The notes: generated by a model not told the origin, from the sequence alone. 64,000 bases of DNA from Candidatus Multivorans sp. (GCA_965203495.1 CBDBDB010000007.1:324959-388958); one strand, 5' to 3'; positions 22,788 to 38,519 are shown, counted from the stretch's first letter. A program made the numbers and translations.

Positions 22788-23016
22788 GGGCGGTCGCCGA
22801 GGCTAGCAGCCCGTGGTGGAAGTACGTGTCGAGCCGAGAACGGTCAGGCGCCCGTCCGGCATCGTTGCTCCTCGGTCGAGGTTGGCCCGATATGCTCCCT
22901 CGACCCGAACCGGCGGCCGAAGCCGTGATGACGACGGCCGACTATCGCCGACTGCTTCACTCGATCTGTCTCAGATCTGTCTGAGCCACTACACAACGGC
23001 ACCCAAGGAAGTACCG

Positions 23017-23964
23017 ATGACCACGGATTGGCGCGGCGAGGAACGAGAGGCGAACCGCCGACCACTGCTTGCGAGCGCGACGCGATGGCTTGGAGCGTCG
23101 CTGGTCGCCTGTTGGCCCGCACTCGCGGTCGCTCAGTACACCGATCCGGCTACGCCCGCCGATTCGCCTCTGTGGTGGCCGATTCTGGACGGCATCACGT
23201 CCGAAGAACTGAGGCTCCGACACCAGCGTGACGCGGTTGCGACCGCGTATCGCCTGTCCGTGGAGGCGGGACAAGCTCCCGACTGCGGCCCGGATTACGT
23301 CCCTCGCCGGTTCGCCGACAGCGGGATGAATCCCGAGTTGGCGCCCGTATGGTTCGTGTTGCAAGATCGCTTCGTACGGGCGACAACCCCGAACCGCGAT
23401 GTCGTGGCCGAGCACGAGCGTGAACTTCGGCGTTACGGCATGTCGCGAAGCGGCCTCGACGCGCTGAGTCGGTTCGTCTCTCGGGCGAGCGCCGATCAGA
23501 AACGGCGTCAGAACGAGCTGGAAGACGCTTCGGCGCCAATGGGAGAGATCGTGCTTCGGTTCATGGCTGAGAATCCTCCGCCGACCGAAGCGGCGTTGCG
23601 GTCGTATGCTTCCGCCGTCGCGGACGGCGAGTTGGACGCCATCGACCGGCAGATGTTCGAACGGGGGAAAGCCATCGACGATCTGGTGGCGGGCGCCGGC
23701 GATCCGCTCGCTCTATCGGCCCTTGTGGGCGGCACTCACGCCGAATGGGTCGAGTGGATCGAACTGTCCAGGGCCGATCCTGAGCAGGACTCGATGGAGC
23801 TGCACCTTCCTGTACTGCGCAAGGAGCTGTCGGATGCCGATTGGACGGCGCTTCGGACGTATCTCGCGACCGTGATCGGGAACCAGCAGTTGGGCGTCTG
23901 GTCGCTTGTCGATTGCCCGCAGGCACATTTCTTTGTCGGTCAGCCCGCATTGCTGTCCCGTTGA
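23017..23964 (+). CDS. Hypothetical secreted protein
   Basis: SD AAGGAAG lies 7 nt before the ATG at 23017. A signal peptide LGASLVACWPALAVAQ is present. No recognisable catalytic motifs were found. Confidence 0.5.
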   Translation: MTTDWRGEEREANRRPLLASATRWLGASLVACWPALAVAQYTDPATPADSPLWWPILDGITSEELRLRHQRDAVATAYRLSVEAGQAPDCGPDYVPRRFADSGMNPELAPVWFVLQDRFVRATTPNRDVVAEHERELRRYGMSRSGLDALSRFVSRASADQKRRQNELEDASAPMGEIVLRFMAENPPPTEAALRSYASAVADGELDAIDRQMFERGKAIDDLVAGAGDPLALSALVGGTHAEWVEWIELSRADPEQDSMELHLPVLRKELSDADWTALRTYLATVIGNQQLGVWSLVDCPQAHFFVGQPALLSR

Positions 23965-23991
23965 CCGAGTTGAGAAACAGGCTTGAATCCG

Positions 23992-24059
23992 TCTCTTGCT
24001 GCATCATTGGTTGGCGTCGAAACCCCAATGACTGCAAGGAGGATTCAAGCCCATGGCGC
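23992..24059. other. 68-nt imperfect long hairpin (10-bp perfect outer stem GGCTTGAATC/GATTCAAGCC)
   Basis: Paired segments were read directly from the sequence. It lies 16 bp from the IS256 target-site duplication. Confidence 0.5.
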
Positions 24060-24180
24060 ATCGTAGCACGGTGTTGGGACAGCGGGGATGTCCCGTCGGT
24101 TGTTGAACTTTGGGAGTAGGGTGGCGGCTCTCCGGCCCGATGAGCGGGCCGGTCTCAGCGAAAGAAAGGAGACGCCACCC

Positions 24181-25119
24181 ATGGCCAATCATCGCAGTCG
24201 GGAAGGGAATCGGCAAGAGAGAAGGAGCACTCCGAGCAGTCCGTCGTCGGGATCGGGGCTTGGTCTGTTGGAGTCATTGCCCTCGTTGGTCAACGGTCTG
24301 TCGAGCTTTCAGGAGCTGTGCGTCGAGACAGGCCGGTCTACGTTGGCCCGGTTGATGGAGGAGGAGCGGGAGTCGCGGTGCGGCGCGAAGGGTCGTCACC
24401 AGGATGCTCGTTCGGTGTGGCGTGCGGGCAGTGCTCCGAGCCAAGTGACGCTGGGCGGGGCCCGGATCGAGATTCAGCGTCTGCGGGTACGGGGTCCGGA
24501 GGGCGAGGTGCGTCTCGAGTCGTTCGAGTGGGCGGCGTCTCGCGACGCGATGGACCGTCACACGATGGAAGCGATTGCGTCGGGCGTGTCGACGCGGAAC
24601 TACCTGCGGTCGCTGGACACGGCGGCCGCGGGTTCGGACCGTCGTTCGGCATCGCGGAGTTCGGTGTCTCGGCGCTTCAAGGCGCTGTCGGCGCGGCAGA
24701 TGGAGAAGTTCCTGTCGTCGTCGCTGGAAGACGAGGACATCCGCGTGGTGTGCGTGGACGCGAAGTACATCGGTGGCCACTGCATTCTGATCGCCTTGGG
24801 CGTTTCGTCGTCCGGTCACAAGCGGGTTCTTGGCCTTCGCGAGGGTTCGACGGAGAACACGGCGGTGGTCCGCGCTCTTCTCGCCGACCTGGTGGAGCGG
24901 GGCCTCTCGACGGCGAAGCCGTTGCTGTTCGTCATCGACGGCAGCAAGGCCCTGCGCCGCGCAATCAAGGAGGTCTTCGGCGACGCCGCGACGGTGCAGC
25001 GCTGCCAGGTCCACAAGGCCCGGAACGTCGAAGAGCATCTGCCCGAAGAGAGGCGAGCCTCGATTCGCCGGGCGCTCCGCAAGGCCTGGGACAGCAAATC
25101 CGCCAAGACGGCCTTGAGG
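24181..25119 (+). pseudogene. IS256-family transposase, 5' part of copy 1 (interrupted after ...KSAKTAL)
   Basis: The sequence matches the full-length copy at 25218-26501. The reading frame runs into the left end of the inserted IS copy 2. Confidence 0.8.
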
Positions 25120-26558
25120 GGGGATGTCCCGCCGGCTGTTGAACTTTGGGAGTAGGGTGGCGGCTCACCCGGCCCGGTGAGCGGGCCGGTTCCAGCGAAA
25201 GAAAGGAGACGCCACCCATGGCGAATCATGGCAGTCGGGAAGGGAATCGGCAAGAGAGAAGGAGCAGCTCGTCGTCGGGGTCGGGGCTTGGTCTGTTGGA
25301 GGCATCGTCCTCGTTGTTCGACGGTCTGTCGAGCTTTCAGGATCTGTGCGTTGAGACAGGCCGTTCTGCCTTGGCGCAGTTGATGGAGAAGGAGCGGGAG
25401 TTGCGGTGCGGGGCGAAGGGTCGTCACCAGGATGCTCGTTCGGTGTGGCGCGCGGGCAGCGCTCCGAGTCAGGTGACGCTGGGCGGCGCCCGGATGGAGA
25501 TTCAGCGTCTGCGGATACGGGGTCCGGAGGGCGAGGTGCGTCTCGAGTCGTTCGAGTGGGCGTCGTCTCGCGACGCGATGGACCGTCACACGATGGAAGC
25601 GATCGCGTCGGGCGTGTCGACGCGGAACTACCTGCGGTCGCTGGACACGGCGGCCGCGGGTTCGGACCGTCGTTCGGCTTCCAGGAGTTCGGTGTCTCGT
25701 CGCTTCAAGGCGCTGTCGATGCGGCAGATGGAGAAGTTCCTGTCGTCGTCGCTGGAAGACGAGGACATCCGCGTGTTGTGCGTGGACGCGAAGTACATCG
25801 GTGGCCACTGCATTCTGATCGCCTTGGGCGTTTCGTCGTCCGGTCACAAGCGGGTTCTTGGCCTTCGCGAGGGTTCGACGGAGAACACGGCGGTGGTCCG
25901 CGCTCTTCTCGCCGACCTGGTGGAGCGGGGCCTTTCGACGGCGAAGCCGTTGCTGTTCGTCATCGACGGCAGCAAGGCCCTGCGCCGCGCGATCAGGGAG
26001 GTCTTCGGCGACGCCGCGACGGTGCAGCGCTGCCAGGTCCACAAGGCCCGGAACGTCGAGGAACACCTGCCCGAAGAGAAGCGAGCCTCGATTCGCCGGG
26101 CGCTCCGCAAGGCCTGGGACAGCAAATCCGCCAAGACGGCCTTGAGGCGTCTGCGGCAGCTCGCCAGTCATCTCGAGCGGGAGCACCCCGGCGCAGCGGC
26201 CTCCCTACGGGAAGGCATGGAGGAGACCGTCACCGTGCTCGAACTCGGCCTCGCCGGAGCTCTCCAGAAGACCATGCGCAGCACCAATCCGATCGAGAGC
26301 CTCAACAGCTCCGTCGGGCGCTACACCCGCAACGTCAAGCGCTGGCGGGGCGGCGCCATGATCCAGCGCTGGGTCGCCGCAGCCCTCGTCGATGCGCAAT
26401 CACGCTTCCACCGCGTCAGAGGCTACCGAGACATGCCAGAACTCATCCGTGCTCTCGAACGACGAGCACGTCACGTTGACCACCAAACCAAGGCCGCTTA
26501 ACATTCTTCAACACACACGAGCCGCCATCCGAAGTTCAACAGAAAACGGGACAATCCC
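25120..26558 (+). mobile_element. IS256-family IS, copy 2, nested inside copy 1; 8-bp TSD CCTTGAGG
   Basis: CCTTGAGG is at 25112-25119 and at 26559-26566. Both terminal inverted repeats are present. The transposase gene is intact. Confidence 0.8.
25218..26501 (+). CDS. IS256-family (Mutator-like) transposase, intact
   Basis: The 427-aa product carries the DDE-region blocks VLCVDAKYIGGH, FVIDGSKALRRAI and QRCQVHKARNV. SD GAAAGGAGA precedes the ATG. Confidence 0.85.
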   Translation: MANHGSREGNRQERRSSSSSGSGLGLLEASSSLFDGLSSFQDLCVETGRSALAQLMEKERELRCGAKGRHQDARSVWRAGSAPSQVTLGGARMEIQRLRIRGPEGEVRLESFEWASSRDAMDRHTMEAIASGVSTRNYLRSLDTAAAGSDRRSASRSSVSRRFKALSMRQMEKFLSSSLEDEDIRVLCVDAKYIGGHCILIALGVSSSGHKRVLGLREGSTENTAVVRALLADLVERGLSTAKPLLFVIDGSKALRRAIREVFGDAATVQRCQVHKARNVEEHLPEEKRASIRRALRKAWDSKSAKTALRRLRQLASHLEREHPGAAASLREGMEETVTVLELGLAGALQKTMRSTNPIESLNSSVGRYTRNVKRWRGGAMIQRWVAAALVDAQSRFHRVRGYRDMPELIRALERRARHVDHQTKAA

Positions 26559-26566
26559 CCTTGAGG

Positions 26567-26920
26567 CGTCTGCGGCAGATCGCCAGTCATCTGGAGCGGG
26601 AGCACCCCGGCGCAGCGGCCTCCCTCCGGGAAGGCATGGAGGAGACCGTCACCGTGCTCGAACTCGGCCTCGCCGGAGCTCTCCAGAAGACCATGCGCAG
26701 CACCAATCCGATCGAGAGCCTCAACAGCTCCGTCGGGCGCTACACCCGCAACGTCAAGCGCTGGCGGGGCGGCTCCATGATCCAGCGCTGGGTCGCTGCC
26801 GCTCTCATCGATGCTCAATCACGCTTCCACCGCGTCAGAGGCTACCGAGACATGCCCAAACTCATCCGCGCCCTCGAACGACGAGCAGGGCACGTTGACC
26901 ACCAAACCAAGGCCGCTTAA
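26567..26920 (+). pseudogene. IS256 transposase 3' part of copy 1 (continues after the nested insertion)
   Basis: The reading frame resumes at RRLRQIASHLEREHP...HQTKAA. It is nearly identical to the copy 2 C-terminus. Confidence 0.8.
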
Positions 26921-27142
26921 CATTCATCAACACACACGAGCCGCCATCCGAAGTTCAACAGAAAACGGGACAATCCCTGGGACAGCTGCTCAGGATGGTG
27001 TCGAGACATGAGTTCGAGAGAGACGCGCGGACGCTTGACACGGGGAGTTCTGCAAATGACGGCTGGAAATGCACCCAGCGCTTGACGCCGTGGAGCGGAA
27101 GTTCAGGCGCCGACTGTCCGTGGGTCGCGGTCGGCTGTCTGG

Positions 27143-27161
27143 GGGCAGAGAACGGGACAGT
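27143..27161 (+). repeat. IS256 right-end-like remnant GAGAACGGGACAGTCCCCC
   Basis: It resembles the IS256 right end GAAAACGGGACAATCCC. It may be a solo inverted-repeat scar. Confidence 0.25.
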
Positions 27162-27184
27162 CCCCCGCGAGCGCCGGTACTCCA

Positions 27185-27640
27185 TCAAGGAATCCGGTCA
27201 TAGCTCTGCAAGTGGCCATCGAGCGCCCAGATGCGGACGCGGCGGCTCCTGTGCCGACTGCACTCGGTCTCCCAAGCCTTGATGATCGACAGATCGCTCA
27301 GGTCCGGGCCTCTCTTGGCGTGATCCGGAAAGTCGTCAAGCCATTCTTCGAGTTGTCGTTCGTCCGGGAACCGAATCGGCACCCAAGGGGCCTCTCCCTT
27401 CAGAGCCTCACGAATGCTGTTGCGAAACACCTCGGCATACCGTCGCCGGAGCCCGCCGCTCCGGAGATCGGCGATGTGATCGCCAGTTTCAAAGATCGCT
27501 GCCAGTGGCAGAAGAAGGCTGGCACGAGCATCAAGCAATGCGCCGAACTCCGCAAGGACCTTTTCGCGGTCCTGATTGAACGATGGAACGTCGAGCACGT
27601 TGAGCAGAACGCTCGTGTCCACGATAACGACCGCCGACAT
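27185..27640 (-). CDS. PIN-like domain protein (putative nuclease effector), partner of upstream ATPase
   Basis: The N-terminal strand VVIVDTSVLLNVLD is present. Acidic positions E51, D97/D100 and D138 (IWALDGHL) are spaced like the PIN catalytic residues. It starts 6 bp after the ATPase stop on the same strand. Confidence 0.5.
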   Translation of the reverse strand: MSAVVIVDTSVLLNVLDVPSFNQDREKVLAEFGALLDARASLLLPLAAIFETGDHIADLRSGGLRRRYAEVFRNSIREALKGEAPWVPIRFPDERQLEEWLDDFPDHAKRGPDLSDLSIIKAWETECSRHRSRRVRIWALDGHLQSYDRIP

Positions 27641-27646
27641 CGCCGA

Positions 27647-28945
27647 CTAGTCCGCCTGCGTCCTGATCTTGTTCAGCCAGGCGTGGGCGCGTCGGCGGCG
27701 TTCTTCCGGCGTCGGCCGGAGCTTCACGATTCGATCAAGAATTCCCTGCGTCAGGAGATGGCCGACGGCGCCTTGGGCGATGAGTTCGGGATAGTCCGGG
27801 AGGTCGGCAAGACGCTGGAGGCAACTGGCGCCGGTCGTCGGGTCCCGGTAGCAGAACACGACGTTCGGCACTGCGTCGTTCGGCAATGCGTCGAGCAGGG
27901 CGGGGTTGTGGCTGCTGATGAGCACTCGGAGGTTGCGCCGTTGGGCAACCGTGGAGAGTCGGTCCAGCATCAACTCCGCGCGGCTTGGGTGCACGCCGTT
28001 GTCGATCTCCTCGATCACGACGATGCTGCCCTCGGGCGCGGACAGTACCGCGGCGGCGATGCCGAGAACGCGGAGAGTTCCATCGGACAGCAAGGCTGCG
28101 TCGTACTCCGTCCGCCTCCCGCCAAAGGTCTCGGTCAGCTTGACCATGGCCTCGTTGCGCGGAGTCTCGATGAAGCCGATGTTCGTGATGTCCTGCTCCG
28201 GCAGGGCCTTGACGAAGTGGAGCAGCTCGGCCTCGGTATGGGTCTCCTGACAGAGGTTGAACAACACGCCGGAGAGATTCGTTCCGTGGCCGCTCAGCGT
28301 CCGCTCGGTCTTGAAGCTGTAGGCTCGCATGGCTGACGGTTGCGGGTCGAGGAACACGATGTTCGACAGCCAGCTCTGATACCGGGTTGTCACTTCGGGG
28401 ATCACCCGTTGCGCCAGTTTCTGGCGTTGCGCGAATGGCGCCGAACTCTGGAGCTGGAGCAGCACGGCCATCTGGTCGGTGCATGTGACCTGAGGCTTCA
28501 TGCCGCCGCGCGCGAAGTTGTTGTACGCGACGCGAATGTCTCCGCCAGACTCTTGTGAAGATACGACCTCGAAGAGCGGGACGCGTTCGGACGGACCGTC
28601 AAGTCGTTCTTCCGTGATGTGGAGATCCTCGTCGGCTCGTCGCTCGAGCGTCACGGAGTATCGATTCCATTTCGGTTCCGTCGTCATGCACGACAGCGAG
28701 AACCCCTGGCGGCCTCCGTGGCCGAGATCGTTCACCGTTCCCCGGATGGCGTGAGCGCCGTCCTGAAGCGCGTATCGAATGGAACCGAGCTTGTTGCCCT
28801 GGGCGAGCCAGGAGAGGAAACGGAGAGCCTCGACGGCGTTGCTCTTGCCGGAGGCGTTCGCTCCGACCAGAACCGTCAGCGGCCCGAGCTTCAGCGTCGC
28901 TTCCTCGTAGCTCTTGAAGTCCTTTATCGTGAAGCTGGACAGCAT
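27647..28945 (-). CDS. ABC/SMC-type AAA15/AAA21-like ATPase (defence-associated ATPase family)
   Basis: Walker A VLVGANASGKSN is present. The ABC signature-like LSDGTLRVL is present. Walker B IVVIEEIDNGVHP and the H-loop LISSHNPALL are present. SD GGGAGGAGG precedes the ATG. Confidence 0.75.
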   Translation of the reverse strand: MLSSFTIKDFKSYEEATLKLGPLTVLVGANASGKSNAVEALRFLSWLAQGNKLGSIRYALQDGAHAIRGTVNDLGHGGRQGFSLSCMTTEPKWNRYSVTLERRADEDLHITEERLDGPSERVPLFEVVSSQESGGDIRVAYNNFARGGMKPQVTCTDQMAVLLQLQSSAPFAQRQKLAQRVIPEVTTRYQSWLSNIVFLDPQPSAMRAYSFKTERTLSGHGTNLSGVLFNLCQETHTEAELLHFVKALPEQDITNIGFIETPRNEAMVKLTETFGGRRTEYDAALLSDGTLRVLGIAAAVLSAPEGSIVVIEEIDNGVHPSRAELMLDRLSTVAQRRNLRVLISSHNPALLDALPNDAVPNVVFCYRDPTTGASCLQRLADLPDYPELIAQGAVGHLLTQGILDRIVKLRPTPEERRRRAHAWLNKIRTQAD

Positions 28946-29058
28946 CTTCCGCCTCCTCCCGGACCCTCGACGGGTGTGGCCAAGCCTACCGACGAACCGG
29001 CACGCCTGGCCAGGGGTACGGCGTCAGGCTCGCGGAGCTCGGTCCGGGGTCAGCCGGG

Positions 29059-31950
29059 TCACACTCGGAACACCTTCATGACTTCGTCGCCCAGGTGATT
29101 GATCACCTTGACCGCGATGCGCCCGGAGACGGGCTTCGGGAAGGGGCGGGAGGTGTCGCTGTGCAGCGTGGCCCATGCGTCGGCGTCGATCTCGGCCTTC
29201 AAGGTGGTCCTGAGCGACTTGTAGGGGTCGCCGGCGCCGAGGAAGTAGGCCTGGCGGACGAAGAAGCTTTCTTCGTTGTAGTCGGTGTCCACGAACCAGC
29301 AGGCGATGCCTTCGGGTCCGTCGCTGCGGACTTCGCCGGAGGATGGGTCGAAGACGTCGACGCCCTTGATCCTGACCCGGCGCCAGTCCGGCTCGCCGTC
29401 GGGACCGGTTGCGGTCTCGATGTCGATGTCGGGCTCGCCGAAGATGACGAACAGGTTGGCGGCGTTCGTCTTCCTGAAGTCGTCGGCCATGTGCAGGTCG
29501 GCGTTCATCCGCGCCTTGAGGATGGGGACGCGGCCGAGCTTCGTGAACTCGGACACGTGGACGTCGAAGTTGAAGGCGCAGGCGATCAGGACGTCGAATC
29601 CGGCGTCGGCCGCCTCGCGCGCGGCGCTGACCAGGTCCGGCCGGGAGACGGTTCCGAACTCCGGACCGATGAAGACGCCGGCGCGCTGTTCCTTGCCCTC
29701 GCCGTCGACGTAGCGGCCCTCGGCGCAGACCAGCTCGCCGGGCCGCGGTTCCAGCGACGAAAACGCGATCCGGCCGGCCTTGCTCGCCTGCTGAACGCCG
29801 GCGGTGCGCAGGTTCTCGAGAATCACGTGGCCGAACTCGCTGCGGCACACGTCGGCGCCCCCGTCGTCACTCGCCCGCGGCTCGGCCACCAGAAGTTCGT
29901 CCCGCTCGTCCAAGGCGGCCGGGCGATGCGGCGAAACGCTCTCGACGGTAAAGGGTCCGGCGACGCGGACTTTCCGGTTGTCCTGGAAGGGCTTGTCGTG
30001 GAGGTGTTCGTAGTCGGCCTTCGCGGCGATGCAGGCGTCGATCTCGCTCTGGCGGGCGATCCGGGCCTGCCAGAAGCGCTCGTGCGCCTCGCGCGCGGCC
30101 CGGTTCCAGTCGTCTTCCGGCTCTCGGGGGACTTCCCACTCCAGGAAGCCGTTTGCGGGCGCCGGTTCGCCGGAGGGCAGGTCGACCGTGCTTCCCGCCG
30201 GCGCCTCGAAATCGATCTGCTGGCCCTTGCGTCCGCCGGCCTGGACGACGAACGGCGCGGCGTGACCCCGCAGGGCGCGGTTGAGGTCCGACAGGGCGTT
30301 CTCGACCGCCGGCTGCAGGCGCTCGTGGATCACGTCGATCTCGGCGTTGTTGGCGATGGACTTGAGCGTGACGTGGGGGACGCGCTCGACCACGAAGCCG
30401 TGCCGGATGTCGTTGTACGTGGGCGCCTCCGACGGCGCCTTGCGGGCGAGCGCGGCCTCCTTGAGCTGGCCCTCGCGGCTGTCGGCGAGCAGGTACCAGG
30501 GGTAGCGGGCGCCCATGATGCGGGCCCGGGCCAGGGCGAGCGCCACCCGGGACGTGTCGATCGTGATCCAGCGGCGGCCCCATTGCTCGGCGACGTAGGC
30601 CGTCGTGCCGGAACCGCAGGTCGGGTCGAGCACCAGGTCGCCGGGGTCCGTCGTCATGAGGATGCAGCGCTGGATTACCTTGGGGAGAGTCTGTACAACG
30701 TAGGTCTTGTTCGCCGCATAGCCGGCTGTGCCGGTGTCGTTCCACTGGTTCGTGATCCGAACCACGGGGAAGTCATCCAGGAATCGAAGATACGCAGGTG
30801 TATTCCCCTGATAGCCCAAACGTGCCGCCTTGCTCAAACGCTCTATTCCGTCGGCGGTCGTCTTCCAGTGCATTCCCGGTTTGATGGAAAATATCCTTCC
30901 CATGAGTGCAACCGAGTGGGTTTTGGCCGCAGCGCCTTGCGAGGTCAGATCAGCTGACCTCGCAAGGCGCTGCGGCCAAAATCGCGGGAAATTGCCACTC
31001 AGATTGTGTAGCTCCCGATACGACGTCGCCCCTTGTAGACCGGCCTCTTTCTTGTTCGTCAACAGCCGGTACTTCAAGGCAGAGGACTTCCCGTACCAGA
31101 GCAGATAGTCGGACACGTTAGCCAGGCGCATGGCAGCGAAGCCAGACGTCTTGGAGAACGACACTTGAGAGACAAAGTTCGCCTCTCCAAACACCTCGTC
31201 CATCAACGCCCGCACGCGGTGCACGTTCTCGTCGCCGATCTGCACGAACACGGATCCGCTCTCGGTCAGCAGGTCCCGCGCCGCGGTCAGTCGGTCGCGC
31301 AGATAGGTCAGGTAGGAGTGAATGCCGTCCCGCCAGGTGTCCCGGAAGGCCTTGACCTGCTCCGGTTCCCGGGTGACGTGGTCCGCCTTGCCGTCCTTCA
31401 CGTCCCGGCTGGTCGTGGACCACTGGAAGTTCGAGTTGAACCGGATGCCGTAGGGCGGGTCGATGTAGATGGTCTGCACCTTGCCGCGCAGGCCCTCGCG
31501 TTCGGCCAGCGACGCCATGACCTGCAGGGAATCGCCCAGCACCATGCGGTTCGACCAGTTCGCGTCGTGCCGGTAGAACTCCGTTCTGGCGTCGTCGTCC
31601 GGCAGGCCGTTGAAGTCGGCGAAGAGGTCGGGCTGGACGGCCCGGTCTCCGGCCTTCCGTTCGCGGGCCCGGCGGCTGGTCCGCTCCAGATCGTCGATCA
31701 GCACCTTGGGGTGCACCTTCTCCTGGATGAAAAGGGGCGGCGTCGGCACGACGAGGTCGGACCAGTCCTCCATGTCCTTGCCGCGCCAGATCAGCTGCGG
31801 GTCGAGGTCCGGGTTGCGCCGCTCGTACGCGACCCGGATCGGGTCCCGGTCGTACGCGTGCATCACCGGCTCGTACTCGGCGGTGGGAATGTTGCGCCGC
31901 GTCGCTTCGCGGTGGATCAGCGTCTCGACCTTCCGGGCTTTCTTCGCCAT
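29059..31950 (-). CDS. mod: Type III restriction-modification methyltransferase (Mod), N6-adenine beta-class
   Basis: Motif IV IYIDPPYG lies upstream of motif I VLDPTCGSGTTAYVA (beta-class order). A central variable region lies between them. The start is set at MAKKARKVETL. Confidence 0.85.
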   Translation of the reverse strand: MAKKARKVETLIHREATRRNIPTAEYEPVMHAYDRDPIRVAYERRNPDLDPQLIWRGKDMEDWSDLVVPTPPLFIQEKVHPKVLIDDLERTSRRARERKAGDRAVQPDLFADFNGLPDDDARTEFYRHDANWSNRMVLGDSLQVMASLAEREGLRGKVQTIYIDPPYGIRFNSNFQWSTTSRDVKDGKADHVTREPEQVKAFRDTWRDGIHSYLTYLRDRLTAARDLLTESGSVFVQIGDENVHRVRALMDEVFGEANFVSQVSFSKTSGFAAMRLANVSDYLLWYGKSSALKYRLLTNKKEAGLQGATSYRELHNLSGNFPRFWPQRLARSADLTSQGAAAKTHSVALMGRIFSIKPGMHWKTTADGIERLSKAARLGYQGNTPAYLRFLDDFPVVRITNQWNDTGTAGYAANKTYVVQTLPKVIQRCILMTTDPGDLVLDPTCGSGTTAYVAEQWGRRWITIDTSRVALALARARIMGARYPWYLLADSREGQLKEAALARKAPSEAPTYNDIRHGFVVERVPHVTLKSIANNAEIDVIHERLQPAVENALSDLNRALRGHAAPFVVQAGGRKGQQIDFEAPAGSTVDLPSGEPAPANGFLEWEVPREPEDDWNRAAREAHERFWQARIARQSEIDACIAAKADYEHLHDKPFQDNRKVRVAGPFTVESVSPHRPAALDERDELLVAEPRASDDGGADVCRSEFGHVILENLRTAGVQQASKAGRIAFSSLEPRPGELVCAEGRYVDGEGKEQRAGVFIGPEFGTVSRPDLVSAAREAADAGFDVLIACAFNFDVHVSEFTKLGRVPILKARMNADLHMADDFRKTNAANLFVIFGEPDIDIETATGPDGEPDWRRVRIKGVDVFDPSSGEVRSDGPEGIACWFVDTDYNEESFFVRQAYFLGAGDPYKSLRTTLKAEIDADAWATLHSDTSRPFPKPVSGRIAVKVINHLGDEVMKVFRV
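30922..30980. repeat. Perfect 27-bp inverted repeat with 5-nt loop (TTTGGCCGCAGCGCCTTGCGAGGTCAG-ATCAG-CTGACCTCGCAAGGCGCTGCGGCCAAA) inside mod coding sequence
   Basis: It was read directly from the sequence. It sits in a roughly 300-bp low-GC segment (30830-31130) corresponding to the Mod target-recognition region. The frame is maintained. Confidence 0.9.
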
Positions 31951-31954
31951 GTCG

Positions 31955-32335
31955 CTAGCGGTCCTCCGCGTCGGGGATGTGAGCGATGCCGAGCTCCTCG
32001 GCGAGCGCACGGAGTTTCCGGTCCGCCGTCCACAGTGTCGCGTTTCCGTCCGCCAGAACCGCGCCGAGGAGGTTGGCGTCCATGTAGCCGATGCCGCGTC
32101 CCATCCAGGAGTGTCGTTCGATCAGAGCGAGGAGGTCGTCGCCAGAGAGTGTCGCGAGTCGCGGGAAACCCCTCATTCGCTCGAGGAAGCCATCGCGCTC
32201 GGGCAGGTGGCCACATGCCAGTTCGCCGATGACCATGGCATGGGATAGCACCTCCCGGGCCTCCACGCGGTCCCGCAACTCCCGGCTGGGGGCACGCACG
32301 TTGTCAATCCAGATCGACGTGTCCACCAGGATCAT
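31955..32335 (-). CDS. vapC: VapC-type PIN-domain toxin
   Basis: The N-terminus MILVDTSIWID is classic VapC. The protein is 126 aa. The ATG overlaps the res TGA (ATGA). Confidence 0.8.
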   Translation of the reverse strand: MILVDTSIWIDNVRAPSRELRDRVEAREVLSHAMVIGELACGHLPERDGFLERMRGFPRLATLSGDDLLALIERHSWMGRGIGYMDANLLGAVLADGNATLWTADRKLRALAEELGIAHIPDAEDR

Positions 32336-35300
32336 CCCGCTTCCGCGCTCCGGCGTCGCGGAATGTACTTGGCGTCGGGCATCGAGCCGCCGATGGCGCC
32401 AAGGAACCGCGCGACCTCGCTCGCCCGCTCTTCGCTGGCGAGTTCGTCCAGGGCGGTCGCGATCCCGGCGTCTAGGTCGTGTTCCATTTCAGACGGCTCC
32501 CGCAGTTCAAGGTACGCCCAACGACCATGGCGGCCGACCGCGTTGACCGCGGGAATCCAGCAGGTTTCCATGGCTTCCGCCTTCGCCCGGGATTCTTCTC
32601 CTCGCATGCCCTTGACCTCCACCACGACGTGCAGGGGTTCCTCCTTGCCGAGGCCGTGGTCGAGGTCGACGATGAAGTCGGGGGCGTAGCGGCGGGGGGC
32701 GCCGCCGAACCGGTACGGCACGTCGAAGCCGAGGTTCCGGTTCTTCACCCAGGCCAGCACGCGCGGGTGCGCGTCGAGAACGCGGCAGAACTCGCCTTCC
32801 CACGTGCTGTCGAGAATCGCCCAGTTCAGATGGCAGCGACGGCCGGTCCGGTAGCGCTGCGTGCGCGACGTCGTGAAGTGCACGCTGCGGGTCGTGCCGA
32901 CCGGGTTCCAGGGATCGAGCAAGGCCCTGACCGGCTGCTTGGCCGACCGGCGCCGCAGTTCGGCGCGGGTGACGGCGGCCGCAATCTTCTCGCAGGCGCG
33001 GTCGGCGAGCTCCGCCATCATCAGCTGCGCCGGAACCGTGTTTCCCTTGCACGTCAGGCAGGCATCGAGCCATTCGCCGGCGATGCGCTTCAACTGGCCG
33101 AACAGGTGCAGGTCCGGATCTTCGTTCGCGTCGCGCCAGTGCTTGAACAGCAGCCGCTTCGTCAACTCGTAGAGCACGGTGGACCGGCGGACCCCGTTCA
33201 GCCGCTCGGGGCCGAGGTCGTGGCCTTCGCCGATGATGCCCTGATTGTGCGTGATCGTCGGTCCCACGAGTTCCGGCGTCAGCTCGAGCGCCGAGTCCTC
33301 CGTGAACGCGGCGGAGAGGCGGTCGTTCGGCAGATCGACGCGGTAGCCGGCCACCCGCGGGAAGCGGATCTCCGCGTCGTCCCGCTCCGGCGAGAGGGCC
33401 TGGACTTGCACCGTCTCGGCGGGCGGCTGCGGCGGCGCCGCGACGGGCCTGGCGGTGAAGTCGAAGGGCACGCCGAACACGTCCGCGTACTCGACGTCGA
33501 ACAGGCCGCCGTCGTTCAGTTCGTAGGACTGCCGGCGCAGGGAGCGGCCGATCACCTGTTCGCAGAGCAGCTGCGTCCCGAAGGCCCGCAGGCCGAGGAT
33601 GTGAGTGACATTGCTGGCGTCCCAGCCTTCGGTCAGCATGGCGACGGAGACGACGCAGCGGATGGCGCCGCCCAGCCGGCCGGCCTTGCCGACGGTGTTC
33701 ATCGCTTCGCGCAGCAGGTCCTGGTCCGACAGGTTCTCGGCTTGCCGGCGATCTCCCGTCCGTTCGACGATCTCCCGGCGGAAACGCTCGATCTCGTCCG
33801 CGGCGGCGGCGCGGAAGCTCCGGTCGAGCGCGTCGCCGGATTCGAGCTGCCGGCTGTCGATGAGCAGCGTGCGGGGTCTGGGCAGTGGCGTGCCGTCCGC
33901 GTCGAAGTTGCGGAACAGCGGCAGGCGACCGTTGTGGAAGGTCCCCGCGCCGTTCCCGGACCCGCGTGGGAAGCCCGCGATGTAATCGTGGACCAGCTTC
34001 GACGCGGCGGTGTTGTTGCACACGACGATGAAGCAGGGCGGCGTCTCGATGCCGGCCTCCTCCCACAGGGTGAACGTCTTTTCGTAGTGTCCGTAGAGAG
34101 CCTCCAAGGCCGTCTGCAGCTCGGTCGGCAGCGACATCGGGTCGGCGGCCGCGCCGCTTGCGCCGCCGCCGCGGCCCTGCTTCGGCATCTTCCCGCCGAT
34201 GCGCTCCCAGAGGTTCCGGAACATCGGCATCTCGGCGCCGGGGACGTTGTCCACCACCGGCACGCGCGGGACCTTGACGATGCCGCACTCGATCGCGTCC
34301 ATCAGGGAGAAGTCGCTGACGGTCCACGGGAAGAGCGTGCCCTCCGCGTAGCCCGAGCCGCGCAGGAAGAACGGCGTGGCCGACAGGTCGATCACCCGCT
34401 TGATTCCCAGTCTGCGCGCGGTCGCCTCCAGACCGGAGATCCACACGTGCGCCGCCTCCCGGTTGCGCTTCGCCTCGTGGCGGTCGTCGCCGGTCAGCCG
34501 CCCTTCCTCGTCTTCGCCGGCCTTCTCGCGATAGCAGTGGTGCGCCTCGTCGTTCAGGACGAGGATGCCCCTCATCGCCATCAGTTCCGGCATCGCGCGG
34601 GCCAGCATCTCGCCTTCCGTTTCGCGGACTGCGAGGTCCGGGCCGCGGCCCTGGAGCAGGGCGCGGCTCCCCTTGGCCAGCTTCATCGTCTCGCGGCGCC
34701 CGAACGCGTGGTAGTTGACGATCACGATCCTCGCCCTGTCGATGTCGCGCAGCATGTCCGGGGGCGCGAGTTCGCGGCTGGCGTAGTAGCTGTCGGGGTC
34801 GTTCGGCTGGAGCACCCGCAGGCGGTCGCGGATGGTGATGCCCGGCGCGACGACGAGAAAGCCGCGAGTGAACCGCCGGCTCGCGGGGCGGCGAACGGCG
34901 TTCACCGTCTGCCAGGCGATGAGCATGGCCATGACGGTCGTCTTGCCGGCGCCGGTCGCGAGCTTGAGCGCTAGGCGCGAGAGGCCCGGGTTCGCCTGCT
35001 CGCTGGCCGCTTCGATCCGCTCCAGGAAGCCGCGGCCGCGCTTGCCCATGGCGGGCGCGACTTCGGTCAGCCAGATGGCGGTCTCGACGGCTTCGACCTG
35101 GCAGAAGAACGGGCGGATGCCGCTGAACCGATGGTGGCGCCAGTGCTTGAGCAGACGGGCTGTTTCGGGCGTCACGCGCCACTGCGACTCCGGCAGCGCG
35201 CGCCAGGCGGCGATCGCCCGGCGCAGGCCGCCGATCAGCTCGGTCAGCTCGTACTGCTGACCGCCTGGCGTCTCGAGCGCGTCGATGTCCGCGTCCAGGG

Positions 35301-35478
35301 TGAGTCGCCGCTGCGTCTTGCGGCCGGTCTTTCTCGCCCTGGGAATCGGCGAGACGAAGGAAGCCGGGCGACGCCCGGGGGCGATTCTCTCAGTCGGCTG
35401 GCGGTTCTCGTCCAGCACCCAGTGCCGGCCCGGCAGTTCGTAGGGCGAATTGAGGATAGGGGACCGGTGGAACGTCAT
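32332..35478 (-). CDS. res: Type III restriction endonuclease Res subunit (helicase + PD-(D/E)xK) with C-terminal extension
   Basis: DEAH-box LVLNDEAHHC is present. Walker A GAGKTTVM is present. The C-terminal nuclease motif YAPDFIVDL...VVVEVKG is present. The start is set at MTFHRSPILNSPYEL, and the upstream ORF extension is judged spurious. Confidence 0.8.
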   Translation of the reverse strand: MTFHRSPILNSPYELPGRHWVLDENRQPTERIAPGRRPASFVSPIPRARKTGRKTQRRLTLDADIDALETPGGQQYELTELIGGLRRAIAAWRALPESQWRVTPETARLLKHWRHHRFSGIRPFFCQVEAVETAIWLTEVAPAMGKRGRGFLERIEAASEQANPGLSRLALKLATGAGKTTVMAMLIAWQTVNAVRRPASRRFTRGFLVVAPGITIRDRLRVLQPNDPDSYYASRELAPPDMLRDIDRARIVIVNYHAFGRRETMKLAKGSRALLQGRGPDLAVRETEGEMLARAMPELMAMRGILVLNDEAHHCYREKAGEDEEGRLTGDDRHEAKRNREAAHVWISGLEATARRLGIKRVIDLSATPFFLRGSGYAEGTLFPWTVSDFSLMDAIECGIVKVPRVPVVDNVPGAEMPMFRNLWERIGGKMPKQGRGGGASGAAADPMSLPTELQTALEALYGHYEKTFTLWEEAGIETPPCFIVVCNNTAASKLVHDYIAGFPRGSGNGAGTFHNGRLPLFRNFDADGTPLPRPRTLLIDSRQLESGDALDRSFRAAAADEIERFRREIVERTGDRRQAENLSDQDLLREAMNTVGKAGRLGGAIRCVVSVAMLTEGWDASNVTHILGLRAFGTQLLCEQVIGRSLRRQSYELNDGGLFDVEYADVFGVPFDFTARPVAAPPQPPAETVQVQALSPERDDAEIRFPRVAGYRVDLPNDRLSAAFTEDSALELTPELVGPTITHNQGIIGEGHDLGPERLNGVRRSTVLYELTKRLLFKHWRDANEDPDLHLFGQLKRIAGEWLDACLTCKGNTVPAQLMMAELADRACEKIAAAVTRAELRRRSAKQPVRALLDPWNPVGTTRSVHFTTSRTQRYRTGRRCHLNWAILDSTWEGEFCRVLDAHPRVLAWVKNRNLGFDVPYRFGGAPRRYAPDFIVDLDHGLGKEEPLHVVVEVKGMRGEESRAKAEAMETCWIPAVNAVGRHGRWAYLELREPSEMEHDLDAGIATALDELASEERASEVARFLGAIGGSMPDAKYIPRRRSAEAG
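32335..32487 (-). other. In-frame 51-codon RHH/antitoxin-like tail of res (MEHDLDAGIATALDELASEERASEVARFLGAI...), possible internally initiated VapB-like antitoxin
   Basis: No separate antitoxin ORF lies upstream of vapC. The tail has an RHH-like pattern. An internal ATG is preceded by GGGAG. Confidence 0.3.
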
Positions 35479-36028: not shown

Positions 36029-37072
36029 CTACGCGACGCAAAGTTGGAAGCCGAGGCGATGTGCGCGCCAAGAGGCGCAGATCGACTGCATCAGCCCGTC
36101 GAATCGGGCTGTGAACGCTGCAAGCAAGCCAGTCTGGGCGCCCAGAGTTGCCGTGACACGGCCCTGCAGCGATCGTGGCGTGCCGACTCCCGCGAGGCTC
36201 CTCATCAGGAGACCGAGATTGAAGCCGCAGGAATGAATGTAAAGGCGCTTGAGCGCGTTGTCGCGGCCGCGCAGATGCAAGCGCCGCATGCCGCCGGTCT
36301 CGAACTGGTGAGCGAAGGGACGTTCGACGCGCTCGCCGCGCCGGCGCTGCAGCCGCTTGCCCCGATTGCCGCGGACCCGCCGACGGTTCGCGTACACGAT
36401 GGCTTGCAAGTCCTTCTTGCCTGTCCAACGACGACGACCACGGTCCGGCTCCGCGATGTAGCTGCGAAGCTCCAACTCGTCGATGGAGGCGAGAACGTCG
36501 TTGCTGTGGTAGCCCTTGTCCGCAATCACTTCCTCGATCACCGACGAATCGCCGACTGCCGACTCCACCTGCTCGAACGTCTCCTCCAACGTCTCGTGGA
36601 CCGACTCCGTGTCTCCCTTGGCGCCGCCATGCAGCGTCACACCCAGAATGGCCCCGCTCTCCAGGTCCACCGCCTGCTCCGCCTTGTACGCGAGGTGCGT
36701 GCGGCCATCCTTCATCTTCGTGACCTCGGCATCCGGATCGTGAGGATTCTCCCACTCCTCGTTCGACAGCTTCTTCTTCCGCTTGCGGTCGAAACGAGCC
36801 AACTCCGCACGAGTCAGCGTCGCCAAGCCCGAAGCCTCTGCCAAGCCACGCACGAACTCCTCGTAGCCAGAACCCGTATCCCGACGAACGATGCTGCGCA
36901 GCGCAGCGTTCGCCTCCAGCGTCGTCGCGTCCACGCCCACTGTCTTCCCCGATACCAGACCCGACTCCGCCAAGCGCTCAAGAACCCAGCTGAACACCTT
37001 GCCGTGAGTCTCCAGATCGATCAGACGACGAGTGCGAGAAATCGTCGAATGATCCGGCGAACCCTCCGTCAC
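36029..37072 (-). pseudogene. IS5/IS1182-family DDE transposase, C-terminal 347 aa (N-terminus severed by IS256)
   Basis: Hallmark blocks DKGYHSNDV and ERPFAHQFETGGMRRLHLRGRDNALKRLYIHSCGFNLGLLMRSL are present. The frame begins exactly at the IS256 junction. Confidence 0.75.
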
Positions 37073-38519
37073 GGGATTGTCCCGTTTTCTGTTGAACTTC
37101 GGATGGCGGCTCGTGTGTGTTGATGAATGTTAAGCGGCCTTGGTTTGGTGGTCAACGTGCCCTGCTCGTCGTTCGAGGGCGCGGATGAGTTTGGGCATGT
37201 CTCGGTAGCCTCTGACGCGGTGGAAGCGTGATTGAGCATCGATGAGAGCGGCAGCGACCCAGCGCTGGATCATGGAGCCGCCCCGCCAGCGCTTGACGTT
37301 GCGGGTGTAGCGCCCGACGGAGCTGTTGAGGCTCTCGATCGGATTGGTGCTGCGCATGGTCTTCTGGAGAGCTCCGGCGAGGCCGAGTTCGAGCACGGTG
37401 ACGGTCTCCTCCATGCCTTCCCGGAGGGAGGCCGCTGCGCCGGGGTGCTCCCGCTCCAGATGACTGGCGATCTGCCGCAGACGCCTCAAGGCCGTCTTGG
37501 CGGATTTGCTGTCCCAGGCCTTGCGGAGCGCCCGGCGAATCGAGGCTCGCCTCTCTTCGGGCAGATGCTCTTCGACGTTCCGGGCCTTGTGGACCTGGCA
37601 GCGCTGCACCGTCGCGGCGTCGCCGAAGACCTCCTTGATTGCGCGGCGCAGGGCCTTGCTGCCGTCGATGACGAACAGCAACGGCTTCGCCGTCGAGAGG
37701 CCCCGCTCCACCAGGTCGGCGAGAAGAGCGCGGACCACCGCCGTGTTCTCCGTCGAACCCTCGCGAAGGCCAAGAACCCGCTTGTGACCGGACGACGAAA
37801 CGCCCAAGGCGATCAGAATGCAGTGGCCACCGATGTACTTCGCGTCCACGCACACCACGCGGATGTCCTCGTCTTCCAGCGACGACGACAGGAACTTCTC
37901 CATCTGCCGCGCCGACAGCGCCTTGAAGCGCCGAGACACCGAACTCCGCGATGCCGAACGACGGTCCGAACCCGCGGCCGCCGTGTCCAGCGACCGCAGG
38001 TAGTTCCGCGTCGACACGCCCGACGCAATCGCTTCCATCGTGTGACGGTCCATCGCGTCGCGAGACGCCGCCCACTCGAACGACTCGAGACGCACCTCGC
38101 CCTCCGGACCCCGTACCCGCAGACGCTGAATCTCGATCCGGGCCCCGCCCAGCGTCACTTGGCTCGGAGCACTGCCCGCACGCCACACCGAACGAGCATC
38201 CTGGTGACGACCCTTCGCGCCGCACCGCGACTCCCGCTCCTCCTCCATCAACCGGGCCAACGTAGACCGGCCTGTCTCGACGCACAGCTCCTGAAAGCTC
38301 GACAGACCGTTGACCAACGAGGGCAATGACTCCAACAGACCAAGCCCCGATCCCGACGACGGACTGCTCGGAGTGCTCCTTCTCTCTTGCCGATTCCCTT
38401 CCCGACTGCGATGATTGGCCATGGGTGGCGTCTCCTTTCTTTCGCTGAGACCGGCCCGCTCATCGGGCCGGAGAGCCGCCACCCTACTCCCAAAGTTCAA
38501 CAACCGACGGGACATCCCC
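37073..38519 (-). mobile_element. IS256-family IS, copy 3 (inverted relative to copies 1/2); 9-bp TSD CTCCGTCAC
   Basis: CTCCGTCAC is at 37064-37072 and at 38520-38528. The terminal inverted repeats are GGGATTGTCCC... and ...GGGACATCCCC. Confidence 0.8.
37130..38422 (-). CDS. IS256-family transposase, intact (copy 3)
   Basis: Its N-terminal 300 aa are identical to the copy 1 fragments. Its C-terminus matches the copy 1 3' part. Confidence 0.85.
   Translation of the reverse strand: MANHRSREGNRQERRSTPSSPSSGSGLGLLESLPSLVNGLSSFQELCVETGRSTLARLMEEERESRCGAKGRHQDARSVWRAGSAPSQVTLGGARIEIQRLRVRGPEGEVRLESFEWAASRDAMDRHTMEAIASGVSTRNYLRSLDTAAAGSDRRSASRSSVSRRFKALSARQMEKFLSSSLEDEDIRVVCVDAKYIGGHCILIALGVSSSGHKRVLGLREGSTENTAVVRALLADLVERGLSTAKPLLFVIDGSKALRRAIKEVFGDAATVQRCQVHKARNVEEHLPEERRASIRRALRKAWDSKSAKTALRRLRQIASHLEREHPGAAASLREGMEETVTVLELGLAGALQKTMRSTNPIESLNSSVGRYTRNVKRWRGGSMIQRWVAAALIDAQSRFHRVRGYRDMPKLIRALERRAGHVDHQTKAA

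Follow-up and report, generated by a model that had tools for sequence, protein, structure and literature searches.

A PDC-M07 ATPase–PIN gene pair adjoining a type III restriction-modification system in Candidatus Multivorans: a candidate ATPase-controlled nuclease defence module

A 64,000-nucleotide stretch of the genome of Candidatus Multivorans sp. (GCA_965203495.1 CBDBDB010000007.1:324959-388958; hereafter, the window) carries two adjacent genes encoding an ABC-type ATPase and a small protein, which near certainly, based on profile comparisons, belong to PDC-M07, a family catalogued in PADLOC as a phage defence candidate. The small protein is predicted with high confidence, from structure modeling, to adopt a PIN fold of the VapC type, and the 2 genes are obligately paired across bacteria and archaea, being recurrently nested in, or adjoining, restriction-modification (R-M), BREX and Hma loci. 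On balance, and largely by analogy with characterized systems, we favor the picture of PDC-M07 as an ATPase-controlled PIN nuclease defence module. The elements of the pair are as follows.

27647..28945, minus strand: PDC-M07A, ABC-type (AAA_15/AAA_21) ATPase of 432 amino acids, the putative sensor and regulator, assigned from the open reading frame (ORF), Pfam, the PADLOC profile and the motif alignment
27185..27640, minus strand: PDC-M07B, predicted VapC-like PIN-fold protein of 151 amino acids, the proposed nuclease effector
27641..27646, minus strand: spacer of 6 nucleotides separating the ATPase stop codon from the PIN start codon, read from the sequence and indicative of tight coupling
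28952..28959, minus strand: Shine-Dalgarno sequence GGAGGAGG, 6 nucleotides 5' of the ATPase ATG, read from the sequence

Both genes are co-oriented, with the ATPase gene coming first and the small ORF second. The ORF read-out agrees in full with the coordinates, lengths, gene order and 6-nucleotide gap proposed for the pair in an initial annotation of the window, which had also correctly credited the pair with a strong Shine-Dalgarno sequence of its own; this sequence, GGAGGAGG, lies ahead of the ATPase gene.

The assignment to PDC-M07 was made by scanning the window proteins with the profile models of PADLOC-DB v2.0.0 and by gene adjacency. The ATPase matches PDC-M07A (PDLC04392) with an E-value of 9.3e-188, residues 1-430 aligning to positions 1-430 of the 432-position profile, and the small protein matches PDC-M07B (PDLC04395) with an E-value of 1.7e-54, residues 1-149 aligning to positions 1-157 of 161. 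The adjacency of the 2 genes on one strand is likewise found in 33 of 35 other loci (see below). The window pair thus shares with the catalogued family the full-length profiles, the gene order, the strand and the near-zero spacing, with no structural difference, and departs from it only in genomic setting: the window copy follows a type III R-M system, whereas the guilt-by-embedding screen that yielded the PDC ("phage defence candidate") families considered genes located within BREX, DISARM and type I R-M (Payne et al., bioRxiv 10.1101/2024.01.29.577857). Supplementary file 8 of that study lists, beside the number 406, the cassette CAS_00050 (FAM_00005>>FAM_01367) with the remark "Assign as candidate PDC-M07" (bioRxiv 10.1101/2024.01.29.577857). 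The initial annotation had considered the pair an undescribed module; given that both proteins match a catalogued system from end to end, which the annotation itself had named as grounds for abandoning the idea, the claim of novelty falls, and the architecture of the pair is not new.

Nor does the combination of an ATPase with a PIN effector, which had likewise been regarded as undescribed, lack a tested precedent. HEC-03, an Hma-embedded module consisting of an ABC ATPase and a VapC-like PIN protein, protects Escherichia coli from phages, lowering plaquing by orders of magnitude, and needs both of its genes to do so (bioRxiv 10.1101/2024.01.29.577857). It is toxic on induction, and its ATPase is, according to its authors, unrelated to VapB (bioRxiv 10.1101/2024.01.29.577857). 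What the present analysis contributes is the model-based assignment of the PDC-M07 effector to the VapC-type PIN proteins, with a conserved active site, the obligate pairing of the 2 genes across bacteria and archaea, the addition of Hma to the list of PDC-M07 host systems, and the direct adjacency of the pair to a type III R-M system.

The ATPase scores well above the Pfam gathering cut-offs for both AAA_21 (99.1 bits against a cut-off of 27; E = 6e-28) and AAA_15 (62.6 bits against 32.1; E = 7e-17), and its N-terminus shows the similarity to SMC_N/AAA_23 that is usual for such proteins; profile searches additionally returned weak similarity to NsnB, RecF and the SMC N-terminal domain. In an alignment of 29 full-length orthologues from other genomes, the Walker A motif (G28-N36, including K34), Q164 of the Q-loop, the ABC signature LSDGT (286-290), the Walker B residues E312, E313 and D315, and H346 of the H-loop are all invariant. 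With both Pfam scores above threshold and all 5 motifs in place, the protein belongs to the AAA_15/AAA_21 group of ABC ATPases, in line with the initial reading of an AAA15-like ATPase with intact nucleotide-binding motifs, and, to judge from the alignment, it is intact and under strong constraint.

For the small protein, NCBIfam assigns no family, no match to the Pfam PIN clan exceeds the gathering score, and a profile search against the sequences of the PDB yielded only chance-level matches (cation transporters and KaiC; E > 0.06). Searches with 45 of its relatives returned sub-threshold matches to PIN_12 in 15, to PIN in 13 and to PIN_4 in 7, the best E-value being 0.002. AlphaFold produced an unusable model from the single sequence (predicted local distance difference test score, pLDDT, of 49) and, with the 45-sequence alignment, a model with a pLDDT of 94.1 and a predicted template modeling score of 0.88, for which the closest structural relatives identified by Foldseek are all VapC toxins. 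The model displays the alpha/beta/alpha architecture of PIN domains: the N-terminal half contains beta1 (residues 4-7), helices, beta2 (41-44), a helix spanning residues 46-57 and another helix, whereas the C-terminal half is composed of beta3 (86-88), 2 helices (94-109 and 114-129), beta4 (135-138) and a short helix.

Within the model, D8 follows beta1, E51 is located in the helix after beta2, D116 lies at the start of the helix preceding beta4 and D141 is just past beta4, a placement which we take to be that of the canonical D-E-D-D active-site residues of VapC. Across 245 family members of 140-175 amino acids, these 4 acidic residues are conserved in 98% (D8), 96% (E51), 92% (D116) and 86% (D141) of the sequences, and an additional acidic residue, D148, in 76%. 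Alignment of the small protein with the window's own VapC-like protein (see below) using hhalign gave a local match of 33 columns, of low probability, in which D116 pairs with D86 and D141 with D104. The PIN assignment derives from the structure model, the residue conservation and the sub-threshold PIN-clan matches of the relatives rather than from a Pfam match of the window protein. Given the placement of the D-E-D-D residues and their 86-98% conservation, the small protein is apparently a divergent VapC-like PIN domain which is catalytically competent. The PIN reading of the initial annotation is supported by the modeled fold and the conserved tetrad; the Pfam PIN search that it had proposed alongside structure prediction did not recover the domain. 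PIN proteins have meanwhile been validated as effectors elsewhere, namely, in DS-3 and DS-5, 2 defence systems that cannot do without the PIN catalytic residues.

The distribution of the pair was assessed with a degenerate-pattern search covering 1 genome per GTDB species, which revealed 35 loci encoding a relative of the small protein. In 33 of these, an orthologue of the ATPase (44-70% identity) is encoded directly 5' of the PIN gene on the same strand, and in the other 2 the contig breaks off at or within the PIN gene; the co-conservation expected of a genuine module thus holds across phyla. In 22 of the 25 loci in which both ends could be placed, the end of the ATPase ORF and the beginning of the PIN ORF overlap by 1-23 nucleotides, consistent with translational coupling of the 2 genes. 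The hosts comprise bacteria and archaea. The former include Acidobacteriota, Spirochaetia, Burkholderiales, Rhodocyclaceae, Magnetococcales, Desulfovibrio, Planctomycetota, Anaerolineales, many Nostocales (Cyanobacteria) and Enterovibrio, and the latter Methanothrix and Methanosarcina. An exhaustive hidden Markov model search of 1.84 billion cluster representatives recovered 713 clusters of the small protein at E ≤ 1e-10, nearly all of them stand-alone proteins of about 150 amino acids. The pair was also found on 8 plasmids. One of these, a 9-kb MOBQ plasmid of Acinetobacter, carries it next to a RelE/ParE toxin-antitoxin (TA) system, with no annotation beyond "ATP-binding protein" and "hypothetical protein". 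The label "tumE" seen under one of the plasmid matches (H6) was rejected as an annotation of the pair, as it belongs to an overlapping neighbor gene. Collectively, the pair has spread horizontally and widely. In the window, its G+C content is 0.63, compared to 0.68-0.73 in the flanks, which is consistent with horizontal acquisition.

Several of the other loci place the pair inside known DNA-methylation-based defence systems. In a member of the Rhodocyclaceae (L010) and in Desulfovibrio (L014), it lies between BrxC and PglX of BREX, in Cuspidothrix (L029) between HsdS and HsdR, and in a further locus (L027) it comes after HsdM and HsdS. Since the exact PIN protein of the window had no match in the contig index, 2 close relatives, L038 and L040, were used for comparison. 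In L040 (75% PIN identity), HmaB and HmaC enclose the pair, with a HEC-01 module and a further ABC ATPase next to it. Where it is inserted between BREX, type I R-M or Hma genes, the pair is co-oriented with them. The Hma locus of L040 (1623-14907), in which HmaB is split into pieces of 730 and 253 amino acids and is accompanied by HmaC, contains 3 consecutive embedded ABC-ATPase modules: a HEC-01-type ATPase together with a DUF1828 protein, the PDC-M07 pair, and, on the opposite strand, an AAA_15/21 ATPase of 570 amino acids.

The second relative, L038, is syntenic with the window (84% PIN identity and approximately 85% nucleotide identity) and has the same gene order, res-PIN-mod-ATPase-PIN. 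By contrast, no homologues of the type III mod, res or VapC-like genes are present beside the pair in any of the 35 GTDB loci, and the partnership with type III R-M is therefore lineage specific. The 2 syntenic loci diverge after the pair, where L038 encodes a TIR-domain protein and the window carries an insertion sequence (IS), which suggests a hot spot of variation downstream of the pair, at the island's edge. More precisely, positions 9900-11132 of L038 encode a TIR_2-domain protein of 410 amino acids and an ORF of 71 amino acids, followed by sulfatase and glycosyltransferase genes that the 2 loci share; the window lacks both ORFs in the corresponding region (22788-27184), which instead contains IS insertions and an ORF of 383 amino acids (22813-23964, plus strand) with no Pfam match.

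Comparison with characterized systems shows that the pair resembles several of them in architecture and belongs to none. The likeness to HEC-03 lies in the combination of an ABC ATPase with a separate small VapC-like PIN protein and in the embedding in methylation-based defence, PDC-M07 itself being located in an Hma locus in L040. However, the 2 represent different sequence families: the window PIN protein has no HEC-03 match at E ≤ 1, and the window ATPase gives no more than a weak match, over part of its sequence, to PADLOC HEC-03B, a model of ATPase length (E = 2.4e-13, residues 289-352), so that the two-protein match that would place the pair in HEC-03 is missing. The 458-position PADLOC model PDLC04148 bears the name "HEC-03B" but recognizes ABC ATPases; in the paper, the ATPase is HEC-03A and the PIN protein HEC-03B. 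The A and B labels thus appear to differ between PADLOC-DB and the publication.

PARIS similarly combines an AAA_15/21-type ATPase with a small separate nuclease, and the window ATPase matches AriA with an E-value of 4e-27. In PARIS, the Toprim nuclease AriB cleaves tRNA once the AriA ATPase senses a phage anti-restriction protein; the window effector, by contrast, has a predicted PIN rather than a Toprim/DUF4435 fold and does not match AriB, and the pair is accordingly not an AriA-AriB system. In the anticodon nucleases PrrC and RloC, an ABC-type ATPase situated within an R-M locus controls an RNA-cleaving effector, which provides a fallback should restriction be inhibited. PrrC, however, is a single polypeptide with its own, non-PIN anticodon-nuclease domain and depends on EcoprrI, whereas PDC-M07 comprises 2 genes that occur with many different host systems or alone. 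Unlike in VapBC, no VapB is encoded: the 5' gene specifies the 432-amino acid ATPase, which carries no DNA-binding antitoxin domain, no other ORF fits in the 6-nucleotide gap, and the similarity of the small protein to Pfam PIN is below threshold. As for the remaining ATPase-based systems, the NCBIfam PtuA model gives 35.5 bits against a cut-off of 500 and no HNH partner is present, which sets the pair apart from Septu; GajA is absent from the best 25 matches and no helicase gene is adjacent, unlike in Gabija, which combines GajA (an ATPase fused to Toprim) with the UvrD-like helicase GajB; and the MADS model NF047739 (MAD3 ATPase) gives 83.7 bits, well short of its cut-off of 420.

Using HEC-03, PARIS and PrrC as the base for analogy, we infer a defence function, an RNA substrate, a dual role of the ATPase as sensor and inhibitor, and an abortive outcome. 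The PIN nuclease would be kept inactive by the ATPase, which would sense an infection cue, for instance, a protein of the phage or an anti-restriction factor; on binding or hydrolyzing ATP, it would then permit the PIN domain to cleave an essential RNA, possibly tRNA or the sarcin-ricin loop of 23S rRNA, as in the case of VapC toxins, whereupon translation would stop and the infection would be aborted. A defence role of the pair is probable, whereas the specific steps of RNA cleavage and abortion are less likely than the defence role. In a bolder version, which we consider rather doubtful, PDC-M07 might be a portable guard for DNA-methylation-based immunity, its ATPase detecting anti-restriction proteins or a failed type I or type III R-M, BREX or Hma complex and freeing a VapC-like PIN ribonuclease with a new RNA target.

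A number of observations weigh against the proposed nuclease defence module. At the sequence level, the window small protein matches neither PIN nor any other Pfam family at E ≤ 1, none of its 45 relatives reaches the Pfam PIN threshold, and promoter and terminator signals for the pair were looked for and none was identified. At the level of genomic context, for most of the 33 loci in our neighborhood census no surrounding known defence system is apparent, very few of the neighbors matching BREX, type I or MADS models, and no copy of the pair was found among GenBank phage records or IMG/VR contigs, leaving it with no prophage or satellite link that would support defence. Finally, the 145 PDCs were released explicitly as untested candidates (bioRxiv 10.1101/2024.01.29.577857), and searches of the searchable literature for PDC-M07 under several spellings found no text naming it and no experimental test; in one study, only 4 of 8 tested candidates were protective, studies of PADLOC candidates have chosen ones other than PDC-M07, and according to a 2026 survey most PDCs are still without validation.

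Given that the closest structural relatives of the PIN protein are all VapC toxins, the pair might instead be a plain TA or addiction module, in which the PIN protein would be the toxin, of the VapC type, and the ATPase would serve as an antitoxin of large size and atypical kind or as a chaperone, the pair stabilizing plasmids and genomic islands with no dedicated phage sensing. Its presence next to RelE/ParE on the Acinetobacter plasmid and on other plasmids, the toxicity of induced HEC-03 and the location of most loci outside a recognized defence system would all fit such a role. Nevertheless, we consider it unlikely, because the gene upstream of the PIN gene encodes a full ATPase with invariant catalytic motifs rather than a small DNA-binding VapB, the HEC-03 ATPase has been judged by its authors to be unrelated to VapB, and the pair has repeatedly been inserted, in the same orientation, between genes of BREX, type I R-M and Hma systems. 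Moreover, one and the same module could combine TA activity with abortive-infection defence. Still less probable is that the PIN domain serves as an inactive adaptor or that the pair functions in DNA repair or recombination, as a RecF/SMC-like ATPase with a FEN-like PIN protein. Menshen NsnC, which contains inactive PIN-like (inPIN) domains beside an ABC ATPase, offers a precedent for the former, and the weak similarity of the ATPase to NsnB, RecF and the SMC N-terminus, together with the lack of a Pfam PIN match, would be compatible with either. However, inPIN domains are devoid of the D-E-D-D residues, which are 86-98% conserved in PDC-M07B, and the patchy, horizontally transferred distribution and the embedding in defence loci are unlike those of housekeeping genes.

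The embedding itself could be taken to mean that the pair is a PrrC-like guard strictly dependent on the neighboring R-M, BREX or Hma complex, latent until a phage anti-restriction protein disables that complex, and inactive alone. In favor of this possibility, the pair is embedded in BREX (L010, L014), type I R-M (L029, L027) and Hma (L040), it is joined to type III R-M in 2 related genomes, where it lies 113 nucleotides past mod with no detectable promoter, and PrrC with EcoprrI provides a precedent (bioRxiv 10.1101/2024.01.29.577857). Strict dependence is, however, improbable: the partner system varies from locus to locus, with no type III R-M homologue in the 35 other loci, and this speaks against dependency on a specific protein partner; the pair stands by itself at many loci and on many plasmids; and HEC-03 is active when cloned without its Hma host system. 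PDC-M07 is a well-defined and easily testable candidate, with obvious point-mutant controls, and adds to the cases behind an emerging rule, namely, that the nuclease effectors partnering ABC ATPases are interchangeable.

In the window, the pair is part of a 10.1-kb defence block bracketed by outer, inverted IS256 copies. The other features of this region are as follows.

29059..31950, minus strand: type III methyltransferase gene mod, 113 nucleotides 5' of the pair; Pfam N6_N4_Mtase, E = 3.6e-32; PADLOC MTase_III (PDLC03632), E = 0; start at 31950 set by alignment to the L038 orthologue
31955..32335, minus strand: VapC-like PIN ORF of 126 amino acids between res and mod; Pfam PIN, 22.1 bits against a gathering score of 23.6
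32332..35478, exact start uncertain, minus strand: type III restriction subunit gene res (ResIII helicase-nuclease); Pfam ResIII, E = 7.7e-8; PADLOC REase_III
36029-37072, minus strand: DDE_Tnp_1 (IS4/IS5-type) transposase, between res and the right IS256 copy
37073..38519, minus strand: inverted IS256-family copy on the far side of the defence block; Pfam Transposase_mut, E = 3.5e-44; 9-bp duplication CTCCGTCAC
24084..26977, plus strand: IS256/Mutator-family IS interrupted by another copy; Pfam Transposase_mut; 9-bp direct repeat TGGGACAGC at both ends; 207 nucleotides 3' of the PIN gene
about 25120-26558: third IS256 copy, splitting the left one; 96% identical; flanked by CCTTGAGG

This context agrees with the initial annotation, which had placed the pair in an island with IS elements, a type III R-M system and a VapC toxin; the type III genes and the VapC-like PIN ORF are upstream on the same strand, and Mutator/IS256 and DDE transposases flank the block on both sides. 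Since no sigma-70-like promoter was detected in the 113-nucleotide gap between mod and the ATPase gene, co-transcription of the pair with mod is possible. The res product is 85% identical to its L038 orthologue of 1,045 amino acids. The PIN ORF embedded between res and mod overlaps both genes by a few nucleotides (4-6) and occupies the same res-PIN-mod position in L038 (79% amino acid identity). No VapB antitoxin ORF accompanies it at the locus, the C-terminal tail of Res (last 60-130 residues) has no Pfam support as a fused VapB-like antitoxin, and no PADLOC model matches the embedded protein. Judged by its position, this orphan PIN may represent a further embedded candidate, located within a type III R-M system, and its presence hints at 2 layers of PIN backup for type III R-M, an arrangement which falls outside the original embedding screens of type I R-M, BREX, DISARM and Hma loci.

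The right IS256 copy is a 100% identical inverted repeat of the left one, and the possibility that the 2 copies form a composite transposon was considered and rejected as the route by which the block was acquired: each has its own 9-bp target duplication, and they therefore represent independent, recent insertions. Further away, at 39331-45962, the window contains several very long overlapping ORFs of 575-1,480 amino acids on both strands, with no Pfam match at E ≤ 1e-5, some of which are probably shadow ORFs in DNA of 67% G+C.

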